Below, piece by piece: positions 29,593 through 60,078 of a DNA stretch of 64,000 bases; positions within the stretch are counted from its first letter, which is position 1; every line of letters starts with the position of its first letter. The notes under the pieces were generated by a model. That model searched no databases. It was not told where the DNA came from and saw nothing but the letters and a program-made list of their open reading frames with translations. This DNA comes from a virus (lineage: Duplodnaviria > Caudoviricetes), in the IMG/VR virus record IMGVR_UViG_3300021376_000006; one strand, 5' to 3'. Position numbers and translations under genes: made by a program.

Positions 29593-29602
29593 AAGTGTCC
29601 TT

Positions 29603-29678
29603 TTGTGCGCTAGACAGGAATTGAACCTGTTATTTTGAGCTTTAGAGACTCCGGCTCAACCATTTAGTTTCTAGCGGC
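29603..29678 (-). tRNA. Degenerate tRNA-like gene with amber anticodon CTA
   Basis: 76 nt; loop CTCTAAA; T-arm ACAGG-TTCAATT-CCTGT; bulged acceptor, weak D-stem, 3' end CAA not CCA. Confidence 0.6.
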
Positions 29679-36454: not shown

Positions 36455-36830
36455 ATCCAGCCACTTCTGTTACCGAGCAGGCTGGGTCCATCTCTGAGTC
36501 TTAGTTTAGCTTAGGCAGCTAAACGAACCTCAAACAGCTCATCATTGGCTGCATTTATGGTTTTGCTTCTTTTACGGAGATCGCCTACCGTGTTGTCCAT
36601 ATCCTTACTTATTGCCCTGTCGAAACCAAATTCAGGCCCATCAAAAAGCATTTTCAAGGTGTCCCTCTCCGATACAACGAGGAATCGCTAACCTTGTCTG
36701 CCTTCCCCACTCTTATCAGCTTCCTCATACTTACCGTGGTGGGTCGTTATATCATCGGGCAAAATGCTTTTTGGTGGACCTGCCCGGGGTCGAACCGGGG
36801 TCCAGAACACCTTTCATTCAACTTCATACA
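36455..36830 (-). ncRNA. ssrA: Circularly permuted (two-piece) tmRNA
   Basis: Acceptor piece ...GGTTCGACCCCGGGCAGGTCCACCA (CCA 36772-36774) precedes coding piece GGGCCTG..GGTTTCGAC (from 36639); tag AANDELFEVRLAA* at 36552-36511; outer ends approximate. Confidence 0.9.
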
Positions 36831-36960
36831 ACAATTTTAATCTTTATTTTCTTTGACCCATTTGTAATAGATCAGTACGCATGCTAGTGTTATGGAACCT
36901 ATTAATAATACGCCCAATAAAAAACCAACTATAAAGTAAAGCTGCTCGGTTCCAATTTAC

Positions 36961-40260: not shown

Positions 40261-40532
40261 TACTTGGGTATATTATAATCTCTATCGTATTGCGAGGTTA
40301 TACTCCAGTGTGCTTCTGGTCCTGGATATTTTATATTACTCTCTACCGGTAAGCCAAACCGTTTTAGAATGTTTTTACGATCCGCTTGCGAACCACAGCA
40401 TTGAGCACATTCCTGCACGATCAATTCGCACAGGCGTATAACAGCTTCTTGATCATACTTGTCCATTTGATCCAAACAGCCTTGTGCTGTTATACCCGCT
40501 TCGTACATCAAATTGTCAAAATGTTCGTTCAT
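40260..40532 (-). CDS. Small phage protein, LIVxEC family variant
   Basis: RLCELIVQECAQCC...ILKRFG. Confidence 0.65.
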   Translation of the reverse strand: MNEHFDNLMYEAGITAQGCLDQMDKYDQEAVIRLCELIVQECAQCCGSQADRKNILKRFGLPVESNIKYPGPEAHWSITSQYDRDYNIPK

Positions 40533-40692
40533 GATTTTTTCTTTACACAAAAGGTTTGAATTTCAGATTGCCGTTGTTGAACAAATTCAGCCTGCTTGAG
40601 GCAGGCTGCTTGACCTACAGTTTCTAAATAAGGATTATAAAGTATTCGATCGGGACCGAGAACTGTTATAACCACAAGGATCCAAATATCCA

Positions 40693-41253
40693 TTAGTTTT
40701 TGTAGTACAAATCAACGCGACGATTCTGCGCCCAGGCAGCTTCATTGGATCCTATTGCTCGAGGCTTTTCACTACCATACGAATAAGCTTCTACTTGATT
40801 TTGTCTGGCACCGTAAAATATCAATAACATTCGTACTGCATTGGCTCTTTTCTGTCCTAGCGCCAAATTATATTCTGCACCACCACGTTCGTCTGTGTGT
40901 CCTTCAACAAAAACCAATTGATCAGGATTTTTTAAAAGAAATTCCGCATGCTGTTTTATTACCGGTACAAAATTATCTTTCACGGTGTATTCGTCAAGAT
41001 CAAAATACACACTACTATTTTCAAACAAAGTGTTTGGATCTGTACTGTGTATTTTTATGCTAGTGATTTCAGCATTGGGATCAGCTACTTTGTCCACAAT
41101 TACTGTTGCAGTGCTATTGGTATTAGACTTGGGTGTGGTTCTATTACTTTTGTTTTCAACTGGGGGCGGATCTTTTGTGTTGACTGTGTCTTGCAAACTG
41201 GACATCGAACAGGCTGCAAGCGATAACACGATTGTATAAGCAAAAACTTTCAT
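40693..41253 (-). CDS. pal: Peptidoglycan-associated lipoprotein (OmpA-like domain)
   Basis: Lipobox LAAC; VYFDLD, EGHTDERG..EYNLALGQKRA, SYGSEKP, NRRV. Confidence 0.92.
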   Translation of the reverse strand: MKVFAYTIVLSLAACSMSSLQDTVNTKDPPPVENKSNRTTPKSNTNSTATVIVDKVADPNAEITSIKIHSTDPNTLFENSSVYFDLDEYTVKDNFVPVIKQHAEFLLKNPDQLVFVEGHTDERGGAEYNLALGQKRANAVRMLLIFYGARQNQVEAYSYGSEKPRAIGSNEAAWAQNRRVDLYYKN

Positions 41254-45717: not shown

Positions 45718-46083
45718 TTAAATTGCTATACGTTGTTGTCCGGCACGCCGCATTTCGCCGCGCATGATTGTTTTCATTACCAATGTGTCATTTATTTTGG
45801 CAACAGGCACTGTGATATCTGTTTCTAAATCAACCACATGAATTGCTACACCTTCGGGTAAATCTTTTAAAAATTTATGCCTTTTCAACAACAGCTTGCT
45901 AAAAAAATCTGCAACCTCGGCAATGCCGATAGGTTCGGTGTTTCTGGGATCGTTAATACGATCAACAAAATGTGTGGTAATTTTTACCGGTATATTGTAT
46001 GGTACGTATCTGGTGTTTAACACCTGGGTATAGTGCTTGGCCAGTTCAGCGTTGTTTTCTGTGAGAAATTCTTGCAAACGCAT
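45718..46083 (-). CDS. Putative internal head protein (CTS-like N-terminus)
   Basis: MRLQEFLTE; HFVDRINDPRN. Confidence 0.6.
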   Translation of the reverse strand: MRLQEFLTENNAELAKHYTQVLNTRYVPYNIPVKITTHFVDRINDPRNTEPIGIAEVADFFSKLLLKRHKFLKDLPEGVAIHVVDLETDITVPVAKINDTLVMKTIMRGEMRRAGQQRIAI

Positions 46084-48200
46084 TATGTTTTAATAATGAA
46101 GTTGATAGCCAGGTACGGAGGTAAGTTTTGATTTGTGCCGCTGACACCTGCAGAGTTTATTGTTACGCCGGTGCTGGCATAATCAGTCCAATTATAAAAA
46201 CTAGCATCTGTACCGGCGTCTGGACCTTCCCCAATCCATGGTTCATTTGGTCTAGCTTGATTAGGGGTGTTGCTAAGAACGGTGGTACTAGTTGGATTGC
46301 GTTCCCATGCTGCCGGTACCTCTGGGTCACCAGCATTAAGATAATCATTTATACCATAAAACAGAGCCCCACTCACAGGATCTCTTAATTGATGACGATG
46401 TGTAGGATCAGTGGTATTGTGACTGTGACTTACCACTACTGCATCTTTTGTGCCACCTGTGTTACCTATAGCATACAATGTGCCTGCGCCAACTGGCATT
46501 CTATTTCTGTAATCGGGCAGGTTAAATGTATTAACTCCGTCTCCGTTGCCAAAGGTGCTGCCAAGTATGGCAAACAATGCAGCATAGGTGGTTCTTGACA
46601 CTGCAAGGCCATTGCATAACAAGAATCCTGTAGGTGCAGACACTGTGGGCCACATCATCAAGCTGCCAGTAGGTACACTGTTGTTTTGTACAAAAGCAGT
46701 TGTAGCAACTGCGGTGTTAGATGTTCCCGGAGGCATAGTAGGAGTAAATATTTGTCCTCCTACGTGTAAATTTCCACCAAGACCTATACCTCCAGTAACA
46801 ACCAATGCACCGGTTGATGTTGATATAGCTGCTCTCGACGAACCTACAACTAGGTTGCCAGTCACTGCTAAATTTGCCGCGACCGAAGAATTGCCCGATA
46901 CAGTTAAATTGCCGCCCACTGAAGCAGTTAAACCAACATCCAATCTACCAGTTAAAGATACTGAATTGGCATGCATGGTATTCAACCGCATTCCTTGACT
47001 ACCAACATTTGAACTGATATTGGCGGTTGGGATCAAATCAGCACCCAAGTATATTGTTGCCACATTACTAACAGTAACAAAAGTATTTGCAGCATTTACA
47101 TTGCCTACTAAAATACTTTCTGAAAAAATGTTTTTAAAACGGTTAGTTGTATTTCCTAAGGTAAAAGTTACGTTTGCACTTGGGATAATATGGCCAAAGA
47201 AATTAGCAGTACCATTAACTAAACCCGACAGAATATCTACGTAATTTTTTGTAGCAAAAGTCAAAGCCGGAGATGAATTTGTTGGTTGTGCATATGCTTC
47301 GGCTAATCCTGTTTGATAATTGCCTCGTAAAAACGGTGTTTGCGTTCCGCCTGTTTTGAGACTTAATATAAAGTCGCGATTGTTAGTTTGATTGTGCAGC
47401 GTGACTGTGCCGCTAGTGACATTTGCAACAAAATCACTGGCTGCACCAAAAGTCAGGCCACCATCGTTTGTCAATGATAAAGATCCGTTAATAGATCCTG
47501 ACATGTTATTTCTTACGAATGTGTTACCAAACACAGCAACGTTGTTTACATATATAGATTGGGCAACTTCACTGTTACCCCAGAAAGTGTGTCCCAGTGT
47601 GCTGTTGAGATTGAGTCCCTTTTTTATAGTAGCAAAACCAGCTGTATCAGATGCAAAAGGACCGTCTTTGCTCCAGATACCCACTAATATATTGTCGATA
47701 AAAAATTTAATTACAACATAGGTAGTTGACGGTGGGGCATCTGTTACTGTGTCCGGGATAGCCCCTGAATTACCAGTGGCAAGTCTTGACAGAGGTCCTA
47801 CCAAGCGCCATTCAGTACCTGTATATATTTTAAGCTGTCCATTTGTAGTATCATACCACTGTTCACCAGTGTATGAGTTGGTCGGAGTTGATGCACTCAG
47901 AGTCATACCAGCCAAGGTTTTCCAAATGGCGTTGCCCGAGCCTTTAGTAGCAGCAACGTTAACACTTAAAAGTTTTGTAGTGCTGTTAAACCATAACTGT
48001 CCAGGAATAGGTGCAGACGGTTCTGTGGTTTTGGCAAAGTTTTCCATGAGTCTTACAAAGTTTTGATTTAAGAATAAACCATAACCTTTGTAATTTTTTC
48101 CTAATAGAACCAAGCTGGTATTGGCACTATCTGCGGTATTATCCAGCAAACCGCCCGCAATTAGATCTTCTCCGTTACTTAATGTAATATTATATGGCAT
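46083..48200 (-). CDS. Tail fibre/baseplate protein with phage tail collar domain
   Basis: N-term NFVRLMENFA...GQLWFN; C-term PTGSLMMW...GFLLCNG.AVSRTTYAALF...FNLPD. Confidence 0.85.
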   Translation of the reverse strand: MPYNITLSNGEDLIAGGLLDNTADSANTSLVLLGKNYKGYGLFLNQNFVRLMENFAKTTEPSAPIPGQLWFNSTTKLLSVNVAATKGSGNAIWKTLAGMTLSASTPTNSYTGEQWYDTTNGQLKIYTGTEWRLVGPLSRLATGNSGAIPDTVTDAPPSTTYVVIKFFIDNILVGIWSKDGPFASDTAGFATIKKGLNLNSTLGHTFWGNSEVAQSIYVNNVAVFGNTFVRNNMSGSINGSLSLTNDGGLTFGAASDFVANVTSGTVTLHNQTNNRDFILSLKTGGTQTPFLRGNYQTGLAEAYAQPTNSSPALTFATKNYVDILSGLVNGTANFFGHIIPSANVTFTLGNTTNRFKNIFSESILVGNVNAANTFVTVSNVATIYLGADLIPTANISSNVGSQGMRLNTMHANSVSLTGRLDVGLTASVGGNLTVSGNSSVAANLAVTGNLVVGSSRAAISTSTGALVVTGGIGLGGNLHVGGQIFTPTMPPGTSNTAVATTAFVQNNSVPTGSLMMWPTVSAPTGFLLCNGLAVSRTTYAALFAILGSTFGNGDGVNTFNLPDYRNRMPVGAGTLYAIGNTGGTKDAVVVSHSHNTTDPTHRHQLRDPVSGALFYGINDYLNAGDPEVPAAWERNPTSTTVLSNTPNQARPNEPWIGEGPDAGTDASFYNWTDYASTGVTINSAGVSGTNQNLPPYLAINFIIKT

Positions 48201-48251: not shown

Positions 48252-50360
48252 TTACTTTTTACGCCCACTTTTCATATTTGCACACCAGTGGTACATTCGA
48301 CCACGCTCACCACCGGATTTTTTAGCTTTTTGACGCAAACTGGTCACTGATCCTGAACAACTAGCACCGGCACGTTTGACTCTACCCGGACGACTTTGGC
48401 CCTTGACTTTGCCATCGGCAAAGTTTTCATCTATTTGTTGGTTTAAAAACTGTTGTACAGCTTGCAAATGATCGCTGCCAGCTACGTATACACCTTGTTT
48501 TCTTGAGGCCAAAAACTTATCACGCAGGTCGTTAACAGACTTAGCCACACGACCCGCCCGGTTAGGATATTCTGCCCAGTTGTTGGGCCACATCAGTCGT
48601 TCGCCTAGCTCAAAAAACTGTCGCACATTGCGTTCTGTGGCTGGTGCTTGACTCATTCTAACAAAGTCATATTCACCTTCACTCACAGCCTGTAAAAACT
48701 TTGTCAGCGTTTCAGCATCAAACTTTCTGTCAGGGAAATAGTTGGTGCTGGGTTGTGTGCCGAGTATGCGATTAAAAATAGACACACTGGGGTCCGACCC
48801 AATCTTACCTTTTACAGTATCATTTTCTTTTATGTTAGAGAACAGAACATATAAGAATGCGGCCGGATAACCTTTGATTTTGTGCGATAGCAAATCATCA
48901 TCCCAACTACCTTGATAGCTATCAATGATTCCCGCAGTAAGTTTGCGATCCATACCGTTGCCCTCGTACCAGGCGCCGTGCTGTTTGGCAATTGCCTTTA
49001 CTCGTTCGGTATCAGAATCTGATAACTGTAACCGCTTGCCGTGTTCTTGTCCGACAATAGCAGTATCATTGCCTATGAAAAGCACCCGGCTGGTTTTGGC
49101 TTCTGTAACAGATTCTCCGCCGCCTCCATCACCTCCACTATCACCAGATTCCGAACCGTGAGCACCACTGCCGTAATAACCATAGCCAGGATACCAATAA
49201 CCGCCAAAATACCTGTTGCGGCGTCGACGCTTTTTGCCTTCCGCCATGTCTTGTTTGTTTTTGATATGACTGTATACCCGGCGTAGTTGTTCTGCGTCAA
49301 GATCGTCAAGATGCTTGTGCCCAGTGAGTTTTTCTGTCATACGCAAGAAACTGGGTTCATTGTCCCAGGCTATGCCACGACGGTTAGCAAGATCGTGTAT
49401 CATCTTCTTGGTTATTTTGCCTTCCGTCACACCCGGCTTCAATCGTGTCAGTTCATACACCACTTGATCGCCATGGTCTTCACTGTAGTCATCATAGCCC
49501 CATGCGGCCGCATATCTTTGAACCAACCTGTCATATAATTTTGCTCTACTCTCACTGTTTTGTCCCGGATCAACATCTTTTTTGGCTGAAAAAATCAAAC
49601 GCCATGGTTCGTGTTCTTTGACGAATTTTTGTATGGCATTTAAAACCGTGGCAAATATTCTTTGTGCATCACCTTCACCAGTAATTTCTTGACTGTTGTT
49701 TCTATAAAACTCAACTTGCCATTCGTTGTTCCCTTCGTGATTGAACATGATGCTTAGGTACTTACCATCCGGCAATCGTACTAATGTGTCGTAATCGCCA
49801 AACTCACTTTTCTGCTCGATTTCATGTGGGTAGGGCTGATTAAACGCTTCGTCTAGATCATCCTGGTATTCAGGATTACGAGCAAGTTTAACCGCTCTCT
49901 TATTACCTAACACCCCAGGATTGAACCATACTGTACTTTCAACATCCCAAGCTCGCATTATGGTGTCTTGCCAATTATTCTCTGCAGTATAATGTACAGC
50001 ATCATAGTCCTGGCCAATTGCTGCCCAAGGCATTTTGGTCAGCAACTCTATAGGATTCTTAAATTGTGCCCCGTATTGTTGTGCAACAGCAACAGCATCA
50101 CGGTCTGACCTGATAGTTAGTATCTTTGCCGCGGGAGCGACATCAAACAAAAATCCTGTATCTCCAATCCATTCGGGCATTTCTGCATCACACCAACGCA
50201 CCCATTCGCTGGTTATTCCTTCAGGAGTTTTGATAGCGGTGCTGGTCCATACTTTGACTTGTGGCTTTAATCCTAAGGACTCATTGACAGTGTTAGGATG
50301 CGGTGCATATAGCTGTGTGCCTAATCCTGCTGCCTCGGTTATAAACTCGTAAGCTCTCAT
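48252..50360 (-). CDS. Modular putative internal head polyprotein
   Basis: [10 protein letters not shown]-term; unrelated modules each starting after (L/V/I/M)xE. Confidence 0.65.
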
Positions 50361-51277
50361 TTTTTATTTTTATGTTTTTCTGCATAAGCCAGTACACCCT
50401 CACGCACCCAAGCACCATCTATATGTGCCTGTGCCCTGGTGTGCAGTCTTTGTTTATTCAATGGACCATCACCATTCACATTCTGCCAAAACTCTGTCCA
50501 ATCTATCTCACCAAAGTCATAGTGACCACGATCATCATTCCACTTGAGATCAGGATCTGGTAACTGGACACCAAGGTATTCAGCCTGCGGCACAGTGGCA
50601 TCCACGAACTTCTGACGCAGTTCATCATTGGTGTGACGCTTGATGCCCCAGGCCATGGTCTTTTCTGTGTTAACACTCTCAGCGTCAGGTGGGCCAAACA
50701 TGGCTAGAGTTTTCCACCACCAGCGATCCACAGCCGCCTGCACCATGTCTCGTTGCTCATCAGTACCCTTCATCATGACCATAAGCTGATCATAGCCCTG
50801 GCGCTGATGAAAACTTTCTTCTTTACAGATGCGTATCATGGCACGGGCATATGGACCATAACTGCAACGACACAGGGGAATCTGATTCATGATGGCCGCA
50901 CCATCTACCAACCAACCTATCACTGCTTGATCAGCCCAGGTCACGGCAGGATAATTAAATATGCTGCTGTATTTGGCTTGTCCTGTGTGCAGTTCCGCTA
51001 ACATTTCTTCACGACTGATTCCCAAAGTCTCTGCGGCGCTATACAAATATATACCATGCCCGCCTTCATCCTGTACTTTGGCCAGTAGAATGGCCTTGCG
51101 TTTCAGTGTTGGTGCTCGAGTGATCCAACCGCCTTCTGGCAGCATGCCTACGATTTCACTGTGAGCATGTTGACTAATTTGTCTTATAAGAGTCTTGCGA
51201 TAGGCATCAGGCATCCAGTCCTGAGGTTCTATTTTAATTTCATTGGCAATCTTATAATCAAATTTTTCTTGGCTCAT
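50357..51277 (-). CDS. paaA: 1,2-phenylacetyl-CoA epoxidase catalytic subunit A
   Basis: [63 protein letters not shown]. Confidence 0.95.
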
Positions 51278-51453
51278 TTTACTATCTTAAATCGTGTACA
51301 TTTTGACTGAAATGGATACTCATTGTAAAATTCTGCCCAATTTCTACAATCTTCTAATGTATTATACTGTTTTTTTACAAATAACACAGGAGGGTCACTT
51401 GATAAAATATACACAGTTAAGATATACACAAACATCTCAAATGTGCTCCTTGT

Positions 51454-51645
51454 TCAAGTGGTAGGTGGGGGTTCATAATTTTCTACCCATGTACACCTTA
51501 ACGTGGCCACTTTAGGCTGTTCAAGCAAATGGGTGGCTTCCGCCCAGCATTCCTGCATGGTAGGAAAACCACCCATTTCAACTGATTCGAGTCCAGGTGT
51601 GCCTGTGTTCAGCGTGATAAAAAAGTAGACATATAGTACATACAT
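51454..51645 (-). CDS. Small secreted protein of two-Cys family
   Basis: MYVLYVYFFI...GGFPTMQEC...P.V..LRC. Confidence 0.65.
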   Translation of the reverse strand: MYVLYVYFFITLNTGTPGLESVEMGGFPTMQECWAEATHLLEQPKVATLRCTWVENYEPPPTT

Positions 51646-51800
51646 GCCTATATTTATCAGAAATAGCGTTTGTAATTAGTTCAAACCAATCACTCCTTTA
51701 CCCCAGTGCATCTGGTACTAATTTTTGTGTAAAATATATGTAAAACATATGGCCATACCCAGCACTAAAAATATCATGGCTTTTTTTAATTCACTCATTG

Positions 51801-51983
51801 TTATTCCTTTGTTTCAAAACATATCATGTATTGTGTGCCGCAGTATGGACAACTGGCCATACCGTTTTCGTTAAAATCTAAAAATACCTTGGGATGCGCG
51901 GACCAAAATTCCATAGCAGGGTTTGGACAAAACGCAGGAAGTTTTTTTTGGTTTATTTGGACAGGCTTGGCAGGCGGTTTCAT
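51801..51983 (-). CDS. Zinc-finger (zf-CHCC) protein
   Basis: CPNP...HPKVFL...CPYCG. Confidence 0.85.
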   Translation of the reverse strand: MKPPAKPVQINQKKLPAFCPNPAMEFWSAHPKVFLDFNENGMASCPYCGTQYMICFETKE

Positions 51984-52399
51984 TAAGTATCATCTGTTTT
52001 GTCATGGCTGGGATAGTTATGGCTGGCGTATCTTATCAAGACCACACTGAAAGTGATTACAAGTGTAGATCCCGCGACTGCAATCATTTGCCAAATGTCA
52101 ATGGCAGCGTGACTCATGATATCTACCATGTGGCGAGTGAGTGCTGTAATTGCTATGTATAATAAAAATCTTACGGGCATATGATTGGTATTAAAATAAA
52201 TTCCAACCATAGCTCCAATTTCCAAGTATATAAACAATAAAAGCAAATCACTTACACCAGCATGATGTTTAGAAAACAGTTCAAAAAAAGTCCACGATGC
52301 TGCCCACACTGTGGCAGCACCAATTCCAAACAGTGCCAGCTTATGGAAAGTTGCTACCAGTGTGTTGGCAACATGATTGATTTTTTCACTGTCAACCAT
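51983..52399 (-). CDS. Phosphate-starvation-inducible PsiE family membrane protein
   Basis: DLLLLFIYLEIGAMVGIYF.T.HMPVRFLLYIAITALTR. Confidence 0.85.
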   Translation of the reverse strand: MVDSEKINHVANTLVATFHKLALFGIGAATVWAASWTFFELFSKHHAGVSDLLLLFIYLEIGAMVGIYFNTNHMPVRFLLYIAITALTRHMVDIMSHAAIDIWQMIAVAGSTLVITFSVVLIRYASHNYPSHDKTDDT

Positions 52400-52408
52400 A
52401 CGTGCTTA

Positions 52409-52882
52409 TCACCACATGTCACGAATTTGTTTTTTCTTGCGCTCGGCCACTACCCAGTTTCCACGCAGAGCAAAATACAAACCGCCAACCCAGAGAGAGA
52501 AATGTAAATAATCCGTCAGCATAAAAGTTATCAAACTCTCGGGTTTCAACACAACCCAAATTACACCAGTGGCCACACAACACATCACAATGCCGCTGAA
52601 TCTGGTCAGTGCATCACCGAACTCTGCAGCATAGGGCCAGTCACGGATTTTGTACAATGTGGCTGCACCACCCACTAGCAGTCCCACTCCTGCCAGTACT
52701 TCACCATAAGCAACAAACCACCACACCAAGGGACCAAGTCCAAATGCTGCTCCGCCTGCGGGATCAAAGGGCAGTTTGCTCAAGCCCTGTGTGATAAAGA
52801 TCAAGGCCAGAGGAATCCTTAACAACAGATTGCTCCAAGCAAAGTCAGGAAGCATGTGCCAATAATTTTTTACCGATATCAT
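52409..52882 (-). CDS. DoxX-like membrane protein
   Basis: LLLRIPLALIFITQGLSK...EVLAGVGLLVG. Confidence 0.7.
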   Translation of the reverse strand: MISVKNYWHMLPDFAWSNLLLRIPLALIFITQGLSKLPFDPAGGAAFGLGPLVWWFVAYGEVLAGVGLLVGGAATLYKIRDWPYAAEFGDALTRFSGIVMCCVATGVIWVVLKPESLITFMLTDYLHFSLWVGGLYFALRGNWVVAERKKKQIRDMW

Positions 52883-52893
52883 ATATTACTCCA

Positions 52894-53064
52894 TTAGTTT
52901 TGTGTAAAAGCTGAATTTGTTACTAGTGTGCAACGAACTGATTTTACTCTTGGATCCTTCAATGCCTCAACTTTAACTGCTTCACACTGTTCCTGTAGCG
53001 CATAGGCAGCTACCCTGTGATCATTGCCTGGATTGAACAGCCACGCAATGTACATTATCCACAT
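52894..53064 (-). CDS. Small secreted protein of two-Cys family (56 aa, not in track)
   Basis: MWIMYIAWLF...YALQEQC...DPRVKSVRC. Confidence 0.65.
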   Translation of the reverse strand: MWIMYIAWLFNPGNDHRVAAYALQEQCEAVKVEALKDPRVKSVRCTLVTNSAFTQN

Positions 53065-53364
53065 TTATTTCACAGTCATTATGTATTGTGCCAGCAGTTT
53101 TGCATCTGCCTCTGACACATGGGGTTGCTTGGGCATGGCCATGGCGCCCCAGACTCCACCGCCACCATTTCGAATTTTTCCAGCGAGATACTCTACTGCA
53201 TCTTTTCTATCTTTGTATTTGGCTGCTACTTCTTTCAAAGATGGACCTACTACCCTGTTCTGTGCCTGATGACAACCAATACAACCAGACTTTCTAAACA
53301 ATGCGTCATCTGCCTGAACAGGCATTGATAATATAAATAATACTGTAAACATTACATTTTTCAT
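53065..53364 (-). CDS. Class I c-type cytochrome (c551/c552-like)
   Basis: Signal peptide, CIGCH, VGPSLKEVA, GVWG..MP (Met ligand). Confidence 0.93.
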   Translation of the reverse strand: MKNVMFTVLFILSMPVQADDALFRKSGCIGCHQAQNRVVGPSLKEVAAKYKDRKDAVEYLAGKIRNGGGGVWGAMAMPKQPHVSEADAKLLAQYIMTVK

Positions 53365-53393
53365 GAACTTCCTTTCACATTAAAAATTTAAAC

Positions 53394-53576
53394 ATGCGTT
53401 TTTTATATCTAATTTTATCACTGTTACCTGCTCCATTATTTTTACTACTTGGTATCTTCAACCTCTTTCATTCACCCTCTCATTGTGGTTCATTTCAATA
53501 TGAAATGACTACGATGTGGTTTGTCATGTTTTTTGCACATCTTTTACCTTGGTTAAAAAAAATCAAAACTTCATAG
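53394..53576 (+). CDS. Small membrane protein
   Basis: Two TM; YEMTTMWFVMFFAH. Confidence 0.55.
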   Translation: MRFLYLILSLLPAPLFLLLGIFNLFHSPSHCGSFQYEMTTMWFVMFFAHLLPWLKKIKTS

Positions 53577-54096
53577 CAATTTTTACAGCCGCTTTTGATC
53601 CAGCGTGAACCAATTTACACCATAATTTTAATGCACGACCTGGTACAACTATAACATCGCCCAAAGCATCTTGTCTATGACGGATTTCATCAAAACGCAG
53701 TTTTTTCAAAATATCAATCAACTGCTGCTGATTGTTAACTGTGATACCAGCGAGGTCCGCATCATACACGGATAAAAATTCTATCTGCTCCAAATAATGC
53801 TGATCAACAAAAGTTTCTACTGTGGCAATGGTGTGTTTAATCCAGTTAGGTCCCATGACAGCAGGAATGAATCCAGTTATGAAACCAGCAACTGCCCACA
53901 GTGGCACAAGCAGGCTGTGCTTGGATCTAGGCAAAATGGCATTGACCTCAGCCAGATGCTGTGATTCTTGAGCTAAATGTTCTTGCATAAGATCGGCCGT
54001 TGCTGAATCATGGCGGAACAATTGCATGGCTCGATAGATCCAGACTGCACCTGTCTCTCCAGCCTGATCAGATCTAAGTGCTTGTACTAGATCCAT
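53563..54096 (-). CDS. coq7: Demethoxyubiquinone hydroxylase family di-iron protein
   Basis: LRSDQAGETGAVWIY, ESQH, VETFVDQHY, DEIRH. Confidence 0.88.
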   Translation of the reverse strand: MDLVQALRSDQAGETGAVWIYRAMQLFRHDSATADLMQEHLAQESQHLAEVNAILPRSKHSLLVPLWAVAGFITGFIPAVMGPNWIKHTIATVETFVDQHYLEQIEFLSVYDADLAGITVNNQQQLIDILKKLRFDEIRHRQDALGDVIVVPGRALKLWCKLVHAGSKAAVKIAMKF

Positions 54097-54745
54097 TGCT
54101 TATTTTTTCTTTGTGATAGTCACAGAGGTCTGTAAACATGCATTCATTGCATCTAGGACCCCGTGCTCGACAAACATACTTACCATACTCTATAAGCCAT
54201 TCATGTGCGCCCCAACGATATTGATCTGGAGTTCGTTGCTCAAGAACTTCTGCTGTTTTGTGTTCTGCCTTGGTCTTGGCAATGCCTAGCCTATTAACAA
54301 TGCGATGCACATGGGTATCCACTGCAATCGCAGGTTCATTGAATACAAAACGCATCATAATGTCTGTGCTTTTGCGTCCTACCCCTGCCAACTGCATCAA
54401 CTGTTTTCTATCGTTGGGCACAATGCCGGCGTGACGCTCTAACAATTGTTGGCTCATTAATTTGAGATTCTTGGCCTTGTTGTTGTACATGCCTGCAGGC
54501 CGAATCAATAGTTTTAGTTCATCTATGTCTAGAGCCAAAATCTCCTCAGCAGTTCTAGCTCGGGCAAACAGATTACGGCAGGCTTCTGCGGTTCTTTCGT
54601 CTTTGGTCTGAGCAGACAATGTCACACCAACCAGGCTCTTGAATGCGTTATTGTATATCTTTTCTTTGGGCGGTCTATTAGGTTTAGGATTACGAGCATG
54701 AAACCTTTCATAAACAGTGATCAGTTTTGTTTTAACCATTGTCAA
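54074..54745 (-). CDS. nth: Endonuclease III (HhH-GPD, 4Fe-4S)
   Basis: LSAQTKD, LAGVGRK, AVDTHV, CRARGPRCNEC...C. Confidence 0.95.
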   Translation of the reverse strand: MTMVKTKLITVYERFHARNPKPNRPPKEKIYNNAFKSLVGVTLSAQTKDERTAEACRNLFARARTAEEILALDIDELKLLIRPAGMYNNKAKNLKLMSQQLLERHAGIVPNDRKQLMQLAGVGRKSTDIMMRFVFNEPAIAVDTHVHRIVNRLGIAKTKAEHKTAEVLEQRTPDQYRWGAHEWLIEYGKYVCRARGPRCNECMFTDLCDYHKEKISNGSSTST

Positions 54746-55905
54746 ACCACCACACTAGACGGTGTGGTGTATCCAATCAAGATATCGTTGCCCACATCGT
54801 TAATGTCTCTGTGTCCGGTCAATGCCATAGTAGTATCTAGTTCACTATGGATAATTTCCAAACATTTTGTAACTCCTTGTTCGCCCATAGCACCAAGGCC
54901 ATGTAAAAATGCTCGGCCTATCATAGTGCCACGAGCACCTAATGCCCATGCTTTCAAAACATCTTGCCCGGATCTAATACCACTGTCCAACCATACTTCA
55001 CAATCTTTGCCCACCGCCGCTACAACACTTGGCAATGCCATGATAGTGGACACAGCACCATCCAACTGTCTGCCACCGTGATTGGACACTACTATAGCAT
55101 CTGCTCCTGTATCTCTAGCCAATTTTGCATCATCTCTGTGTAGTATGCCTTTCAGCACCAGTGGCCCGCCCCAGCGTTTTTTGATCCATTCTATGTCATG
55201 CCAGGTCATGGTGGTATCAAATTGTTCTGCGGTCCACGCAGCCAAGGATCCCATGTCTGTGACTGATTCTGTATGACCAATAATATTACCAAAGTTACGG
55301 CGTTTGGTACGCAGCATGTTCCAACACCATTTGGGTTTGGTCATCATGTTAAAAACATTTTTGGCAGTGAGTTTGGGTGGAGCACTCAGTCCATTATGGA
55401 TGTCTTTGTGACGCTGCCCCATGACTTGTAGGTCCAGTGTAAGCACAAGAGCACTGCATCCTGCCACTTTGGCTCTATCAATCAGTCTTCCAATAAAGGT
55501 TCGATCCTTCATCACATACAGTTGAAACCAAAAAGGTTTAGTGGTATGTGCAGCAACATCTTCTATAGAACAAATACTCATGGTAGACAGGCAGAAAGGC
55601 ACTCCAAATTTTTCTGCTGCTCTGGCAGCTAATATTTCACCGTCAGCGTGTTGCATGCCTGCAAACCCTGTGGGTGAAAGTGCCACAGGCATTGTGACCT
55701 TGCGGCCCAGCATGGCAGTGATCAATTTTCTATCACTGACATTTTTGGCCACACGCTGATGCAGTTTTATCTTGTCAAAATCCGTTGTGTTGGCTCTATA
55801 GGTAGACTCTGTCCAAGACCCACTGTCGCAGTAGTCATAGAACATGCGAGGTGTGCGTGATTCATGCAAACGCCGTAGATCTTCAATGCAGGTTACCACT
55901 GTCAT
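54742..55905 (-). CDS. FMN-dependent alpha-hydroxy acid oxidase/dehydrogenase (LldD/glycolate oxidase family)
   Basis: YCDSGS, PVALSPTG, WFQLY, VLKGI, VSNHGGRQLD, DSGIRSGQDV. Confidence 0.95.
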   Translation of the reverse strand: MTVVTCIEDLRRLHESRTPRMFYDYCDSGSWTESTYRANTTDFDKIKLHQRVAKNVSDRKLITAMLGRKVTMPVALSPTGFAGMQHADGEILAARAAEKFGVPFCLSTMSICSIEDVAAHTTKPFWFQLYVMKDRTFIGRLIDRAKVAGCSALVLTLDLQVMGQRHKDIHNGLSAPPKLTAKNVFNMMTKPKWCWNMLRTKRRNFGNIIGHTESVTDMGSLAAWTAEQFDTTMTWHDIEWIKKRWGGPLVLKGILHRDDAKLARDTGADAIVVSNHGGRQLDGAVSTIMALPSVVAAVGKDCEVWLDSGIRSGQDVLKAWALGARGTMIGRAFLHGLGAMGEQGVTKCLEIIHSELDTTMALTGHRDINDVGNDILIGYTTPSSVVV

Positions 55906-55906
55906 G

Positions 55907-56284
55907 CTATTTTATTCCTTTTGGCCAGGGCCATTTTTCGTCGTCGCTGAGTTCTTGATCACGTGGACTGCGATCAGGTTGTCTAAACTGTTCGTCAGTG
56001 GGACGATCAGGATATTCTTTTTGCACTGTACGCACCACTAACCATGTGACAAAAGCCATGCTGACAATAGCCAAATGACCAAACACATTATAGCCAAGGT
56101 ACATTATTTCGCCAGTGTATAAACTAAATGCCAACGCCCAAAAACAGGCCAGCCACACACTGATAATATATTTCATCTGTGCAGGTGCGTTTTTTAGTCC
56201 GTTTTTATTAGGATCTAGAAGATGATAAAAATTCCTAGCCAGGAAGAATAAAAATTTGAATAAGCTGTACATAGGGCCTTTCAA
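55907..56284 (-). CDS. Membrane hypothetical protein
   Basis: LLDPNKNGLKNAP...two TM. Confidence 0.65.
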   Translation of the reverse strand: MKGPMYSLFKFLFFLARNFYHLLDPNKNGLKNAPAQMKYIISVWLACFWALAFSLYTGEIMYLGYNVFGHLAIVSMAFVTWLVVRTVQKEYPDRPTDEQFRQPDRSPRDQELSDDEKWPWPKGIK

Positions 56285-56369
56285 AAAAAAATTTTAAAAT
56301 GATTTTTACAACACCAATAAATTGTACGATAATAATTGAATTAGGTCAAGCAATCTGGCTGTTCTTTGA

Positions 56370-57113
56370 TTATTCTATCATATAATGGTTGAAACTAAAC
56401 CATCCTTGCCATTCTGATCCCATGATAGAATATGATTGTTCGGCAACCTCTGAAGAAATTCGTTGTTTCATTCGATTGTGTGACGCCGATTCAATCATAA
56501 GTTGAACTTGACAGCTTCTTTCCATAGTTATGAACCACCAAGCAGCAGCATCTACTGTGCTACCAACAGTAAGTAAACCATGATTTTGCAGTATCGCTGC
56601 TTTGTTATTGCCCAATGCTTTGGCTATCCTTTGTCCCTCTTCCAGTTCAACTGCAACTCCACCAAAATCATGATACACAGAATGGTCATTGAAAAAAGCA
56701 CAAGCATCCTGTGTGACTATATCTAAACGTCGACCAAACACGCTCCAAGCGCGACCATAAATGCTGTGTGTATGTGCTGCTGCCATCACATCAGGTCTGG
56801 CATGGTGAACTGCATTGTGAATAGAAAATCCTGCCAGATTAATCTGTCCATTGCCATTGATAACTGAACCAGTTTCGTCAACCTGTATGAGATTACTCAC
56901 ACACACTTGACTGAAGTGACAGCCAAAAGGATTCATCCAAAATGTATTTGGAAATTCAGGATCTCGAGCAGTTATATGACCAGCCACGCCTTCATCAAAT
57001 CCAAACTTACTAAAAAGTCTAAATGCTGCGGCCAAACGCTGTTTTATATGCGATCGATGTTGATCAACATCAGAAAATACTGGTGGATTAGGCAAGTTCA
57101 TAAGATTGCTCAT
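56370..57113 (-). CDS. Class II aldolase/adducin family protein
   Basis: EGVAGHITARDP, HTHS, LQNHGLLT. Confidence 0.92.
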   Translation of the reverse strand: MSNLMNLPNPPVFSDVDQHRSHIKQRLAAAFRLFSKFGFDEGVAGHITARDPEFPNTFWMNPFGCHFSQVCVSNLIQVDETGSVINGNGQINLAGFSIHNAVHHARPDVMAAAHTHSIYGRAWSVFGRRLDIVTQDACAFFNDHSVYHDFGGVAVELEEGQRIAKALGNNKAAILQNHGLLTVGSTVDAAAWWFITMERSCQVQLMIESASHNRMKQRISSEVAEQSYSIMGSEWQGWFSFNHYMIE

Positions 57114-57149
57114 GGATTTAAACCTTTACAATTTTTTTTTACATAAAAC

Positions 57150-57377
57150 TTAACTTTGACCAAATATTCGTCTTATTACATAATTTGTATGACGATTGTC
57201 TTGGTCAAGATAACAGATTTCACACAATGCTAATTTCGGCCCATTATGCCCATCAAGAAATTTATGACAGGCAGCACAGTGAATAAACTTTTCGACAATT
57301 TGCCAGGCTTCTGTGTGCTGTGGTACTAGTTGCCAATCTTTATTCTCATGCAGCCAATAGCTCATGCACCGCCCCAT
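57150..57377 (-). CDS. Small Cys-rich protein
   Basis: CAAC...CEIC. Confidence 0.55.
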   Translation of the reverse strand: MGRCMSYWLHENKDWQLVPQHTEAWQIVEKFIHCAACHKFLDGHNGPKLALCEICYLDQDNRHTNYVIRRIFGQS

Positions 57378-57628
57378 TCATTTTTAGCCACCTCACTTGC
57401 TTTAGGTGTGTCTAATCTAGAATTTGAATTTGGTCTAATTTTTTTAAGATTTTTTTGAAATTGTTTTTTACGCCTGCGTTTTTCTAATGTGTCTATTACA
57501 AATCCGGGTAACACATGCAACACTATGTACACTCCAAACAGTATGCCCAGCACTGGTCCCCAAAATGCCATGAACGCCCATTTCAGTTTATCTATCAAAA
57601 AATATGTCTCCAACAAAAGGTATGACAA
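57362..57628 (-). CDS. Small membrane protein
   Basis: One TM plus basic tail. Confidence 0.55.
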   Translation of the reverse strand: MSYLLLETYFLIDKLKWAFMAFWGPVLGILFGVYIVLHVLPGFVIDTLEKRRRKKQFQKNLKKIRPNSNSRLDTPKASEVAKNEWGGA

Positions 57629-57683
57629 TCATTAGGCCAATGACAGTGCCAAAAAAACCAAGTATTTCAATCATAAGTTAATC

Positions 57684-57944
57684 TCAATATGTTTCAGCAT
57701 TCGGATTATACCCACGCATGTTCCATTGATACAGCTTTTGTTCGTGCCAATAAGTCTTAAAAGCTTCTTTTGTTTTAAACTTTTTCTGAAACTCCTCTGT
57801 CACAGATAAACAACTCCACAAGTCTTGACCACCCATTTCACCTTTCATGAACAAAGTGTCACAGTCCCAATAGTATTTTTCAAGTTGTTTATATGGCAAC
57901 TTAGCAGCATTCAAAGCAAGAGCAAGAGTTATTGATAGTAACAT
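57684..57944 (-). CDS. Secreted hypothetical protein, paralogue of 26124-26384
   Basis: YYWDCDTLFMKGEMGGQDL. Confidence 0.7.
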   Translation of the reverse strand: MLLSITLALALNAAKLPYKQLEKYYWDCDTLFMKGEMGGQDLWSCLSVTEEFQKKFKTKEAFKTYWHEQKLYQWNMRGYNPNAETY

Positions 57945-57959
57945 ATAACTTATTTTCTG

Positions 57960-58145
57960 TCAAGTTTTATTTTGATATCCGTCTTTCCAAGTGCATAGAA
58001 TATCCGAAACATTAGGATTTTTCATTTGTATTCGAGATTCTGCCAAGCATTCTGACGTGGTAGGATATCCTGCAATGGTCACAGGTTTCAACCCTACCAA
58101 ACCAGAATTAGTGGTGATCAACATATACACGATCAACACATACAT
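57960..58145 (-). CDS. Small secreted protein of two-Cys family (start reassigned to MYVLIV)
   Basis: Clear paralogue of 51454-51645; the track N-terminus overlaps FDH. Confidence 0.7.
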   Translation of the reverse strand: MYVLIVYMLITTNSGLVGLKPVTIAGYPTTSECLAESRIQMKNPNVSDILCTWKDGYQNKT

Positions 58146-58149
58146 GACC

Positions 58150-59349
58150 TTATCTCTTGAACTTGGCCGCTTCTTCTGACCCGCCTGTGGCATTGCCCTT
58201 GCTGTAGCTATGAGCACCCACACCTGCCAGTTGACCATTCTGCACCACCAGATATTCATTGCGTATTGGGCGACCTTCAAAATGGCATTCTAACACTTCA
58301 CGCACACCTGCGGCATAGCGTGTTTGTGCTGACAAACTGGTGCCAGAAATATGCGGTGTCATGCCATGCCAGGGCATTGAACGCCAGGGATGATCCTGTG
58401 GTGCGGGCTGCGGGAACCATACATCGCCAGCATAACCTGCTAGATGTCCACTTTCCAATGCACGGGCCACAGCATCACGATCGCATACCTTGCCACGTGC
58501 AGTGTTCACAATATAGCTGCCACGCTTCATCTTGGCAATCATGGCATCATTAAACAAGTGTTCTGTTTCTGGATGAAGTGGGCAGTTGATGGTCACAACA
58601 TCCACCACACGAACCATGCTTTCTACGCTGTCATGCCAGGTAAGGTTTAGTTCTTGTTCAACATGTGCAGGCAAACGATGACGATCAAAATAGTGTAGAT
58701 GCACATCAAATGGTTTGAGTAATCTCAATGCTCGTAATCCAATACGACCTGCTGCCACTGTGCCTACATGCATGCCTTCGATATCATAACTGCGACTTAC
58801 ACAGTCAGCAATGTTCCAGCCACCATCTACAACCTGTTTGTAACTGGGAATGTAATTGCGTACCAGACTCAACATCTGCATCACAATGTGTTCTGCCACA
58901 CTATTACTATTACAGTATGTGATTTCTGCTACAGTAATGCCACGATCCATGGCTGCTTGTAAGTCCACATGATCTGAACCAATGCCTGCTGTGAGTGCCA
59001 GTTTAAGTTTTGGTGCTCGGGCAATTCTTTCTGCTGTAAGATAAGCTGGCCAGAACGGCTGACTGATAATCACTTCAGCATCATGTAGATTGTTCTCCAA
59101 TCTACTGTTGGGTCCATCTTTGTCTGAAGTCACAACAAATTCATGACCTAAATTTTCTAAAAATTTTCTTAGACCTAAACCACCTGTAACACTGCCCAGT
59201 AGTTCACCTGGAGAGAAATCCACAGCATGTGGACTTGGAACGGTCTGTCCATCTGGGTAGTGCGTGATTGTGGGAATGCTGTCTCTTGCGTAACTTGTTG
59301 GATGACCATTTACCGGATCATCATATAAAACACATAGAACTTTAGCCAT
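58150..59349 (-). CDS. fdh: NAD-dependent formate dehydrogenase (Pseudomonas sp. 101 type)
   Basis: MAKVLCVLYDDP, ISQPFWPAY, AGIGSDH, AAGRIG, YFDRH, NTARG, PHISG. Confidence 0.97.
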   Translation of the reverse strand: MAKVLCVLYDDPVNGHPTSYARDSIPTITHYPDGQTVPSPHAVDFSPGELLGSVTGGLGLRKFLENLGHEFVVTSDKDGPNSRLENNLHDAEVIISQPFWPAYLTAERIARAPKLKLALTAGIGSDHVDLQAAMDRGITVAEITYCNSNSVAEHIVMQMLSLVRNYIPSYKQVVDGGWNIADCVSRSYDIEGMHVGTVAAGRIGLRALRLLKPFDVHLHYFDRHRLPAHVEQELNLTWHDSVESMVRVVDVVTINCPLHPETEHLFNDAMIAKMKRGSYIVNTARGKVCDRDAVARALESGHLAGYAGDVWFPQPAPQDHPWRSMPWHGMTPHISGTSLSAQTRYAAGVREVLECHFEGRPIRNEYLVVQNGQLAGVGAHSYSKGNATGGSEEAAKFKR

Positions 59350-59397
59350 TGAGCCTCCTTGAATAGATTTATTATACTATTTAATCTATTATATGAT

Positions 59398-60078
59398 CTA
59401 CAAATTTCTTTCCCAGATCACAAAAGGATCATTGACCACAATAGTGCCGTCGGGTCTGGCCATGTAATTGCCACTATGTAGATCCACTGAAAAATTGTGT
59501 TTGCGAGCAAATCTTGAAACTTCGTATACTGTCTTTAGTAGGCCATCTGCTCGTTCGGGCCCACCCAATAGGTCAATGACTTCTTGTACATCTTCAAAAT
59601 ACTTGGGATTGTAACCTGGTGAGTAATAATCTTCGGCACTGGCAAACTCAGCATAACTTTTTATTTTGTTATACGCTGCTTGTAAATTGCCTCGGCCTAT
59701 CTGTTTGGTCACTTGATCAATCTGTGCTACTAAATCTCTAACAGTGTTGGGTAATTCTTCTAGTGTTTCCATTCTGGCCTGAATATATCTTTTACCTTGA
59801 AATTCAAAACTTTCAAATCCTGAGAATCTGGGCAAGTGCGGATTGTTGCGATGCTTGTTGCAATAGTTAATCCAATCGACAAACATTCGTTGATCGGGAC
59901 TGAAATCTTGTACACCTTTACGATAACCAAACACAATATACACTTGACCGTTGGGTTCTAAATATGCATGTTTGTCTATACCACCGCCTAAATAAGTATA
60001 ACCTTTATCTGCTAATACATTTGAGATGCCTCTATGTATTGATCCGGCCATTTCTGTGGTGAAGTCCGCTGCTCTCAT
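59398..60078 (-). CDS. Protein-kinase-like fold protein with CTS-like N-terminus
   Basis: MRAADFTTE; LGGGIDKHAY (Gly loop), METL, DLHSGN, VVNDP. Confidence 0.7.
   Translation of the reverse strand: MRAADFTTEMAGSIHRGISNVLADKGYTYLGGGIDKHAYLEPNGQVYIVFGYRKGVQDFSPDQRMFVDWINYCNKHRNNPHLPRFSGFESFEFQGKRYIQARMETLEELPNTVRDLVAQIDQVTKQIGRGNLQAAYNKIKSYAEFASAEDYYSPGYNPKYFEDVQEVIDLLGGPERADGLLKTVYEVSRFARKHNFSVDLHSGNYMARPDGTIVVNDPFVIWERNL

Follow-up and report, generated by a model that had tools for sequence, protein, structure and literature searches.

A nine-kilobase redox gene island in a large T4-like freshwater phage and its possible role in host respiration

What use could a phage have for a formate dehydrogenase, a hydroxy-acid dehydrogenase, a cytochrome c, and several small membrane proteins packed into 9 kb of its genome? 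The question is raised by IMG/VR record IMGVR_UViG_3300021376_000006, a member of the Caudoviricetes, of which we analyzed a stretch of 64,000 nucleotides (the window) and, within it, the gene island at positions 50357-59349. Proteins identical to those of the island also occur on a JGI contig of 337,915 bp, which puts the phage genome at 338 kb at least. A first-pass annotation, made from the letters of the window alone, had proposed that the island forms a chain in which one- and two-carbon compounds are oxidized and the electrons are delivered to respiration. Our comparisons show that the island is composed of two kinds of part, a conserved phage module and a set of independently acquired enzymes, and that it is not one pathway. 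That these parts together support the aerobic electron transport and redox balance of the infected cell is an explanation to which we give roughly even credence.

A conserved membrane module and enzymes of separate histories

Open reading frames (ORFs) of the window were annotated by scans with Pfam and NCBIfam models, and scores are given against the cut-off of the model. Comparison loci are labeled with L and a number, and taxon names were taken from source annotations only. The genes on which most of the argument turns are the following.

58150-59349, minus strand: NAD+-dependent formate dehydrogenase (FDH), 399 aa; NF005750, 697.5 bits against 329.
55907-56272, minus strand: TM125, a small membrane protein of 121 aa counted from ATG; no Pfam or NCBIfam match.
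54742-55905, minus strand: FMN-dependent alpha-hydroxy-acid dehydrogenase of the LldD/MdlB type, 387 aa; PF01070, 458 bits.
53563-54096, minus strand: COQ7-family di-iron protein of a divergent subfamily, 177 aa; Pfam COQ7, 130 bits.
53065-53364, minus strand: class I cytochrome c of the c551/c552 type, predicted periplasmic, 99 aa with signal peptide; Cytochrom_C, 40 bits.
52409-52882, minus strand: DoxX-family membrane protein, 157 aa; PF07681, 28.9 bits against 23.6, a marginal pass.

We collected 18 loci from IMG/VR with the COQ7-like protein and then by DoxX alignment, and mapped all window proteins onto them; some are near-duplicates, and together they represent roughly ten distinct arrangements. 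A cytochrome c of 98-112 aa stands directly before DoxX, or before the COQ7-like protein and DoxX, in 16 of the 18 loci, and the other two end at a contig edge. TM125 is nearby in 14 loci, a short class II aldolase in 6, the COQ7-like protein in 5, and PsiE in 4, and Nth directly follows DoxX in 3. In six loci the block lies between nrdA and nrdB, in some of them with ErpA and superoxide dismutase (SOD) as well. Among the related phages L117-L122, the gap between nrdA and nrdB looks like a hot spot for accessory genes, and the cytochrome c-DoxX module sits there together with ErpA, SOD, and the aldolase.

The membrane components can be followed well beyond the window. In the DoxX protein itself, PF07681 covers only residues 19-72, and its relatives carry precomputed PF07681 annotations; 1613 of them were found at E values up to 1e-5. 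Identity is 68-81% to DoxX of the 18 IMG/VR loci and 62-72% to homologues in cells. Homologues of TM125 adjoin both cytochrome c and DoxX in the 14 IMG/VR loci that have them, and DoxX in the cellular loci L128 and L129. The Atlas clusters nearest to TM125 are 75-85% viral. Its AlphaFold model is a three-helix bundle with a pLDDT of 66, and a fold search would make little sense with a model so simple and so uncertain. A TM125 profile gave no match in 401 genomes sampled across the order Burkholderiales, in one further genome, or in five small Methylophilaceae genomes, a result that is uninformative because the search had no positive control.

The cytochrome had been described as c551-like, and that description held. 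Its best single-domain matches in the PDB are Nitrosomonas c-552 (1A56; 97.8 bits) and Pseudomonas c-551 (60-75 bits), and its translation contains CIGCH, a distal Met (MPK), and a hydrophobic N-terminus; on the NCBIfam c550 and c551 models it falls far below the cut-offs. The other loci encode a cytochrome of the c554/c4 type where the window has c551/c552. The carrier has therefore been kept even though its type was swapped.

The COQ7-like protein tells a different story from the one first proposed, namely that it makes ubiquinone. Such a role could not be established, given a score of 40.9 bits against 180 on the NCBIfam equivalog NF033656 (DMQ_monoox_COQ7); a phage homologue (L102; 40 bits) and a cellular homologue (L125; 51 bits) score equally low. 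The di-iron ligands (E, ExxH, E, ExxH) are conserved with respect to human COQ7 (7SSP), and the protein belongs to a subfamily distinct from the true demethoxyubiquinone hydroxylases. Homologues stand directly before DoxX in L107, L110, L111, L117, L122, and L131. Two further island genes recur around the module: Nth, with orthologues (82-84% identity) directly after DoxX in L107, L110, L111, and L132, and PsiE, with orthologues (70-74%) beside the module in L114, L115, L117, and L124. The short class II aldolase of these loci was also considered as an orthologue of the aldolase-fold protein in the window and was rejected, with no BLASTP hit at 1e-3 and a likeness at the superfamily level only. 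What is conserved across the loci is a set of functions, not each gene.

In one case the arrangement extends further. On L131 (JGI 3300045434, a contig of 287,404 bp), TM125, cytochrome c, the COQ7-like protein, DoxX, COX2, and COX1 follow one another in this order at 7639-11779, and the stop codon of DoxX overlaps the start of COX2. The contig is probably viral, as suggested by genes shared with viral contigs at 83-86% identity and by PHROGs hits for 2 of 10 ORFs tested; for its COX1, IMG/VR yielded no relative and PHROGs no family. We know of no report of a phage-encoded heme-copper oxidase. Downstream of COX1 on this contig are an aminotransferase and SHMT, and its COQ7-like protein is split over two frames, possibly by a frameshift. 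Tentatively, TM125-cytochrome c-(COQ7-like)-DoxX may be a virus-borne auxiliary electron-transfer module, a membrane unit that would work with whichever soluble carrier accompanies it and plug into the cytochrome c oxidase branch of the host. It is equally tentative that, as part of such a module, at least one giant phage-like contig has added a COX2-COX1 pair of its own.

The enzymes of the island have histories that differ from that of the module and from one another. FDH meets the NF005750 equivalog cut-off over residues 1-385 of 399, and it aligns end to end with the enzymes of Moraxella (2GSD; 747 bits) and Pseudomonas (704 bits). The motifs NSNSVAEH, NTARGK, FPQPAP, TPHISG, and YFDRH (YTDRH in 2GSD) are conserved with respect to 2GSD; we take these to supply the catalytic Asn, Arg, Gln, and His and the Asp that sets the preference for NAD+. 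The protein thus appears, as first described, to be an NAD-type enzyme with intact catalytic motifs. The gene is preceded by a ribosome-binding site (AAGGAGG) and a TATAAT-like box. Tree building by maximum likelihood placed the window FDH, every one of the 7 viral-contig rows included, and 50 metagenomic clusters in a single clade of 58 rows (SH-aLRT, 97), apart from the cellular FDHs of Methylococcales, Methylophilaceae, and Paracoccus. The ratio of nonsynonymous to synonymous substitution (dN/dS) was 0.02-0.06, with synonymous sites saturated. Because of this separate clade, the saturation, and the low dN/dS, FDH is best read as an old, selected phage gene. The closest named cellular relatives are from Methylophilaceae (82%), Methylobacter and Methylomicrobium (about 80-82%), and Paracoccus (79-80%).

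Its distribution among phages is not that of the island. Nine IMG/VR contigs carry FDH at 85-88% identity and none shares any other island gene; they do share other genes of the window, those at 5-37 kb. They therefore come from related phages with shuffled accessory regions. Among 50,697 GenBank phage records, we found no close copy of FDH and no relative above 60% identity for FDH, the LldD-like enzyme, or the aldolase-fold protein; protein searches there returned only distant or host-contaminated records, and a megablast of the island against GenBank phages gave no match.

The flavoenzyme points elsewhere. It exceeds the NF008398 subfamily cut-off (439 bits against 376) and falls below the strict LldD model NF033901 (386.6 bits against 550), and the motifs QLY, GQR, LKGI, and SNHGGRQ are present in its translation. 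The first-pass annotation had called it a lactate or glycolate oxidase, which is doubtful. Only the membrane-bound (S)-mandelate dehydrogenase 6BFG aligns with it at full length (residues 7-376), and the soluble lactate oxidases align in two pieces that leave an insert of about 60 residues (175-234) without a counterpart. For these reasons the protein is probably a membrane-associated, quinone-reducing dehydrogenase and not an oxidase. Its close relatives number just two (96-100% identity), and it branches on a long stem inside Burkholderiaceae/Polynucleobacter sequences, the nearest cellular ones at 73-77% identity. To judge from this placement, the gene was acquired from Polynucleobacter-like Burkholderiaceae. 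The two phylogenies lead to different places, a phage-specific clade for FDH and Burkholderiaceae/Polynucleobacter for the flavoenzyme. With genes of such differing histories, and with nine FDH phage contigs that lack the island neighbors, a single co-inherited chain is not what the data describe. The proposed theme of oxidation feeding respiration survives at the level of gene families, in FDH, the LldD/MdlB-type enzyme, cytochrome c, and the zinc-finger protein zf-CHCC; the COX2-COX1 pair of L131 also lends it support.

How might such parts work together? We envisage the island as an accessory (hyperplastic) region in which a giant T4-like freshwater phage has gathered host-derived genes; if expressed during infection, these would sustain respiration while the phage replicates. 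FDH would act at the level of NADH supply, converting formate to CO2 and NADH. The LldD-like enzyme could pass electrons from a 2-hydroxy acid straight to quinone, and the COQ7-like protein may act at the quinone level, a proposal limited by its weak family membership. The zf-CHCC protein would belong with complex I, as a zinc-finger subunit, and the secreted cytochrome c would feed the cytochrome c pool. Finally, DoxX and TM125 could form a membrane unit that works with the soluble periplasmic carrier on the side of cytochrome c and the terminal oxidase, as would fit its coupling to a heme-copper oxidase in one relative (L131). The benefit to the phage would be an infected cell that keeps its electron transport and redox state going.

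Several observations weigh against this explanation. The electron-transfer role of DoxX, TM125, PsiE, and the COQ7-like subfamily is read from their neighbors only, and the link to COX2-COX1 comes from one contig, for which a viral origin is no more than suggested. Lacking a signal peptide, COQ7-like proteins cannot draw electrons directly from a periplasmic cytochrome, and in other phages the soluble enzymes of the island do not travel with the module. Moreover, AhpC beside a cellular DoxX cluster and SOD and ErpA beside several phage copies would also fit oxidative stress.

That last point leads to the main rival, in which the island is a kit for oxidative stress and redox homeostasis. DoxX and its partners would detoxify radicals or keep thiols and quinones reduced, Nth would repair oxidized pyrimidines, and, in lake water exposed to the sun and rich in peroxide, SOD, ErpA, and the rubrerythrin-like protein would protect iron enzymes, for example, the ribonucleotide reductase of the phage. 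Cellular and viral neighborhoods both lend this some weight. On a contig of a betaproteobacterial metagenome-assembled genome (MAG), aldolase II, DUF2237, DoxX, and a TM125 homologue form a partial counterpart of the module and adjoin AhpC, a pyridine-nucleotide disulfide reductase, and a LysR regulator. The gap between nrdA and nrdB houses the module along with SOD and ErpA in L118-L120, Nth is joined to the module in several phages, and SOD, ErpA, and the rubrerythrin-like protein are all encoded in the window. In addition, DoxX belongs to a membrane-associated oxidoreductase complex with SodA in Mycobacterium tuberculosis (PMC6930017). Yet FDH, the LldD-like enzyme, PaaA, and the adjacency of COX2-COX1 go unexplained by a stress kit, and the known DoxX stress complex operates without a dedicated cytochrome c. 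We consider it rather unlikely as the explanation of the island, and it overlaps with support of respiration, so the two are not exclusive. The same MAG contig also holds rhodopsin and carotenoid genes, and in a 2-Mb genome DoxX is found near a COQ7-like gene and HiPIP.

Gene inventory and integrity of the island

Support of respiration draws on only some of the genes present. The named redox genes were all recovered with intact reading frames, co-oriented within 9 kb, as the first-pass annotation had reported; indeed, ORFs of every size in the island are on the minus strand. The remaining features are as follows.

57960-58145, minus strand: Cys-x15-17-Cys mini-protein, 61 aa, paralogue 1 of 4, from a pattern scan; also called in assembly L134.
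57150-57944, minus strand: three short ORFs with no Pfam family above cut-off; all three also in L097 and L134-136.
56370-57113, minus strand: class II aldolase-fold protein of the PRK06208 subfamily (NovR/TqaM-like); NF004855, 379 bits against 255.
54074-54745, minus strand: endonuclease III-like DNA glycosylase (Nth); HhH-GPD, 89.5 bits; TIGR01083, 191.3 against 211.7.
52894-53064, minus strand: Cys-x-Cys mini-protein, paralogue 2, from a pattern scan.
51983-52399, minus strand: PsiE-family membrane protein; PF06146, 68.7 bits.
51801-51983, minus strand: zf-CHCC zinc-finger protein, 60 aa; PF10276, 36.9 bits against 27.
51274-51645, minus strand: two more Cys-x-Cys mini-proteins, 53 and 63 aa, from a pattern scan.
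50357-51277, minus strand: orphan PaaA, the catalytic subunit of 1,2-phenylacetyl-CoA epoxidase; TIGR02156, 516 bits against 280.

The small ORFs said to be interleaved with these genes are there, namely, the four mini-ORFs and several other short ORFs. The mini-proteins (53-63 aa) have a hydrophobic N-terminus and two Cys residues 15-17 positions apart; the four members (51274-51435, 51454-51645, 52894-53064, and 57960-58145) are kept in all independent assemblies, and a further one lies at 40529-40693. Of the three short ORFs at 57150-57944, one (86 aa) has a signal-like N-terminus, another (69-88 aa) contains a transmembrane stretch, and the third (75 aa) has both CxxCH and CxxC. The last of these (57150-57377; CAACH and a second CxxC) was considered as a cytochrome and set aside as an improbable one: it lacks a signal peptide, its Pfam score is weak (17.7 against 27), and a zinc ribbon is the likelier identity. 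We take zf-CHCC to be kin to the NDUFS6-type zinc finger of complex I. The translation of Nth contains the cluster motif C-x6-C-x2-C-x5-C as well as GVGRK/VDTH with its Lys and Asp.

The flanks are made of phage genes, including a tail-fiber/collar protein at 46083-48200. Elsewhere the window holds a DNA polymerase fragment, an ATP-dependent DNA ligase, several radical SAM genes, and 26 tRNA genes (11964-29677). It also encodes ErpA, an Fe/Mn SOD, a rubrerythrin-like protein, and PqqA, the last a peptide of 24 aa with an E-x-x-x-Y motif (25930-26004); pqqA and erpA had both been named at first pass, and both were found.

Two of the listed enzymes, together with the flavoenzyme, invite an explanation based on aromatic acids. 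The class II aldolase proposed at first was correct as to fold; the protein belongs to the PRK06208 subfamily, and its metal-binding HTH and NHG motifs align with 4XXF. Its best PDB matches are 4XXF, the NovR decarboxylase 9RYG, and TqaM, and with such relatives a role as a sugar-phosphate aldolase cannot be assumed. Phage relatives are 75% identical (L104-106), and the best cellular matches, at 68%, are in Oxalobacteraceae, Ralstonia, and Cupriavidus. PaaA matches 4IIT/3PVR over its full length (462-464 bits) and is an orthologue of the catalytic subunit of Escherichia coli and Klebsiella. It occurs on five IMG/VR phage contigs at 64-81% identity, with a dN/dS of 0.03-0.07 where measurable. 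A comparison of PaaA with representatives clustered at 50% identity collapsed the family and pointed to no named donor. Genes for the partner subunits (paaB, paaC, paaD, and paaE) were absent from the window ORFs that were scanned and from those scanned beside PaaA in L013 and L015, and the gene stands alone here and on two other phage contigs. On L015, from another giant phage (a 281-kb IMG/VR contig; 6453-7922), it adjoins a tyrosinase-domain protein, an M50 peptidase, and an NT5C nucleotidase.

The chemistry of NovR and CloR and a 4-hydroxymandelate route to the ring of coenzyme Q form the background to this idea. A NovR/CloR-like aldolase-fold enzyme, a mandelate-dehydrogenase-like flavoenzyme, and PaaA could make up a set for aryl-C2 acids, with 4-hydroxyphenylpyruvate, mandelate, or phenylacetyl-CoA as substrates; it might yield 4-hydroxybenzoate, the precursor of the ubiquinone ring, and so tie in the COQ7-like protein. 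The best PDB relatives of the aldolase-fold protein agree with this, as do the (S)-mandelate dehydrogenase and 4-hydroxymandelate oxidase among the top matches of the flavoenzyme and the bona fide epoxidase identity of PaaA. Against it, identities to characterized enzymes are 30-45%, from which substrates are not readable, the three genes are unlinked in other phages, the COQ7-like protein lies below its equivalog cut-off, and no gene of the UbiA or UbiC type was seen. We regard such a set as highly doubtful.

A more basic concern is that the island could be an artifact. It might be a chimera made in assembly, bacterial DNA might have contaminated a viral bin, or the genes might be decaying passengers. 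The gene order was re-assembled in five other JGI samples, collinear at 98.7-99.99% identity, and it is therefore not chimeric; the collinear span runs from an 840-aa ORF through FDH to PaaA, a 702-aa ORF, the tail fiber, and a radical SAM gene, and so bridges to phage genes on both sides. The stretch at 47-63 kb is covered to an even depth by contigs from three lake-metagenome runs, and both GC content (0.39-0.48) and GC at third codon positions match those of the flanking phage genes. In addition, 22 lake-water metagenome runs from 2018 contain at least 57% of sampled sequence words, and two freshwater runs from 2021 contain 34-41%. Decay would not predict intact frames, conserved motifs, or purifying selection on FDH and PaaA. 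The little that speaks for an artifact consists of a few places within the island where contigs join or end loosely at the border of a gene; these may be mis-joins or variants. Taken together, assembly chimera and host contamination are excluded for practical purposes, and an artifact of any of these kinds is extremely improbable.

The joints in question are found in Logan contigs, where whole genes or blocks are skipped at gene borders (51662/52893, 53066/58150, 56273/57149, and 51270/57450), and loose ends occur at the FDH start (59349-59369). They may represent cassette-level variants of co-occurring strains. We did not accept the joints as real deletions, as the matching sides are just 20-30 letters long. 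Smaller variants were seen as well. A 1-nt indel at 56390-56391, at the 3' end of the aldolase gene, gives a protein of 247 aa in the window and 253 aa in three other assemblies and most read contigs, with the shared 237 residues identical to those of the window. The 840-aa ORF (60075-62597), an MRxxEFxTE-type protein, is called as ORFs of 339 and 541 aa in L097, where the alignment overlaps by about 166 bases at 61567-61733; this points to a repeat-length or indel variant. Its protein has a weak Amidoligase_2 match in L097 and an unmarked one in L134. Between 45 and 64 kb, a search for repeats revealed no borders of mobile elements. The T4-late TATAAATA motif does not occur on the coding strand within the island, and sigma-70-like and terminator-like matches there barely exceed those in shuffled sequences.

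The host and the case for methylotrophy

Which bacterium would be supplied with these genes? A permuted tmRNA at 36501-36884 exceeds the gathering scores of both RF04321 and RF01850 (beta_tmRNA), with 98 for beta_tmRNA against 84, and the best cellular hits are all betaproteobacterial. On these two grounds a betaproteobacterial host, as first proposed, is supported. Below that level, FDH was found in 15 of 251 sampled genomes of the family Methylophilaceae against 4 of 401 sampled across the order, and an FDH of the phage clade, at 85-89% identity, sits on a 7.6-kb contig that was binned with a Methylophilaceae genome of 1.1 Mb. Phage-type DoxX is present in 8 of the 251 Methylophilaceae genomes, 7 of them 1.2-1.7 Mb in size; in five small genomes of this family with phage-type DoxX, neither FDH nor the LldD-like gene was found. 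Our estimate puts Methylophilaceae first, at somewhat less than an even chance, Burkholderiaceae second as a serious candidate, and other groups last, as a minor possibility. On a 6.9-kb contig (C28; GC, 0.36) of a 1.2-Mb Methylophilaceae-family genome, FDH (71%) directly precedes a DoxX-like gene (L144:1097-2857) that is 53% identical to the MAG DoxX; it is the only FDH-DoxX neighborhood seen outside the window.

It is here that the original proposal has to be weighed. In that view, the island is a dedicated C1 chain that leads from methanol through formaldehyde and formate to CO2 and on to respiration, in a phage of a facultatively methylotrophic betaproteobacterium, with PqqA serving a PQQ methanol dehydrogenase and the cytochrome c acting as its acceptor. 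The named cellular relatives of FDH are methylotrophs, and the enrichment of FDH in the Methylophilaceae sample, the binned contig with its phage-clade enzyme, the phage-type DoxX in that family, the betaproteobacterial tmRNA, and pqqA itself all lean this way. So does a published precedent, the T4-like phages predicted to infect Methylophilaceae that carry methanol dehydrogenase, PqqA, and a class II aldolase (PMC7678222). However, the window contains no gene for methanol or formaldehyde oxidation, and no PQQ-dehydrogenase family was detected among its scanned ORFs. The cytochrome is of the c551/c552 type, and none of its 20 PDB hits was a cL or XoxG protein, the partners of methanol dehydrogenase, so the acceptor role assigned to it is not borne out. 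The LldD-like gene leads to Polynucleobacter-like Burkholderiaceae and, like FDH, was not found in the five small DoxX-bearing Methylophilaceae genomes, and the remaining island genes are missing from the other FDH phages. Methylotrophy of the host is plausible but not shown, and no evidence touches the word "facultative." A dedicated C1 chain is, in our judgment, distinctly unlikely.

Relation to known phage and bacterial systems

Photosynthesis, sulfur, nitrogen, and the oxidation of methane or methanol are well covered by work on phage auxiliary genes; ordinary aerobic respiration in freshwater heterotrophs and methylotrophs has received much less attention. Our findings change no major paradigm; they add a single-subunit, NADH-generating FDH that has been kept under strong purifying selection across a clade of lake phages. 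Formate, a product of photochemistry and of methylotrophs in lakes, may thus be a fuel that phages exploit. The recurrent DoxX/TM125 cluster offers a handle on function, as its neighbors point either to the cytochrome c/oxidase segment or to the control of oxidative stress. The island also illustrates how such regions form: beside the conserved module stand a phage gene of long standing and a recent, host-specific capture, all within one accessory region. FDH is mentioned in passing for a deep pelagimyophage (PMC7029224), and the literature we searched contained no description of the phage FDH clade or of a phage cytochrome c-DoxX module.

Metabolic islands with PqqA and a class II aldolase are already known from freshwater T4-like phages. 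The nearest precedent is found in T4-like phages from Lake Baikal predicted to infect Methylophilaceae (populations VP_139 and VP_266; Coutinho et al. 2020, PMC7678222), which are reported to carry methanol dehydrogenase, PqqA, and a class II aldolase. The window likewise comes from a T4-like freshwater phage with pqqA, several radical SAM genes, and a class II aldolase. In contrast to the Baikal phages, which were reported with a methanol dehydrogenase and a GC content of 35%, it has a GC content of 41% and no methanol dehydrogenase among its scanned ORFs. FDH and the LldD-like enzyme, in turn, are not reported in the searched passages of that paper.

Two of the enzymes can be set beside well-characterized bacterial proteins. 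FDH resembles the enzymes of Moraxella sp. C-1 (2GSD) and Pseudomonas sp. 101 (2NAC/2NAD) over its full length and in its catalytic and NAD-specificity motifs, and it differs from cellular FDH in being phage encoded and in belonging to a separate metagenomic and viral clade of 58 sequences. Similarly, the flavoenzyme shares with LldD of E. coli and MdlB of Pseudomonas putida (6BFG) the FMN_dh fold, the segment absent from soluble oxidases, and a score above NF008398. Unlike LldD, it remains under the strict model (387 against 550), and its nearest relatives are uncharacterized proteins of Burkholderiaceae/Polynucleobacter.

The module has counterparts of a looser kind. DoxD/DoxA, a thiosulfate:quinone oxidoreductase, was reportedly first co-purified with the terminal oxidase of Acidianus. 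In the M. tuberculosis complex, DoxX is joined by SodA and SseA (cited in PMC6930017). As in these complexes, DoxX of the phages is found with soluble redox partners, SOD lies near the module in several phages, and an oxidase stands beside DoxX in L131. The phage module differs in that no SseA-like or DoxA-like partner was detected; the partners are the unclassified 121-aa protein and cytochrome c.

More generally, the island invites comparison with cyanophages, whose auxiliary genes for electron transport include plastocyanin (petE), ferredoxin (petF), and the plastoquinol terminal oxidase PTOX. In both cases, a soluble carrier and redox enzymes borne by a phage would plug into the membrane electron transport of the host. 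The difference lies in the system that is entered and in the parts that enter it: in place of photosynthesis, the target would be the respiration of a heterotrophic or methylotrophic betaproteobacterium, reached by way of cytochrome c, DoxX, TM125, and a COQ7-like protein.

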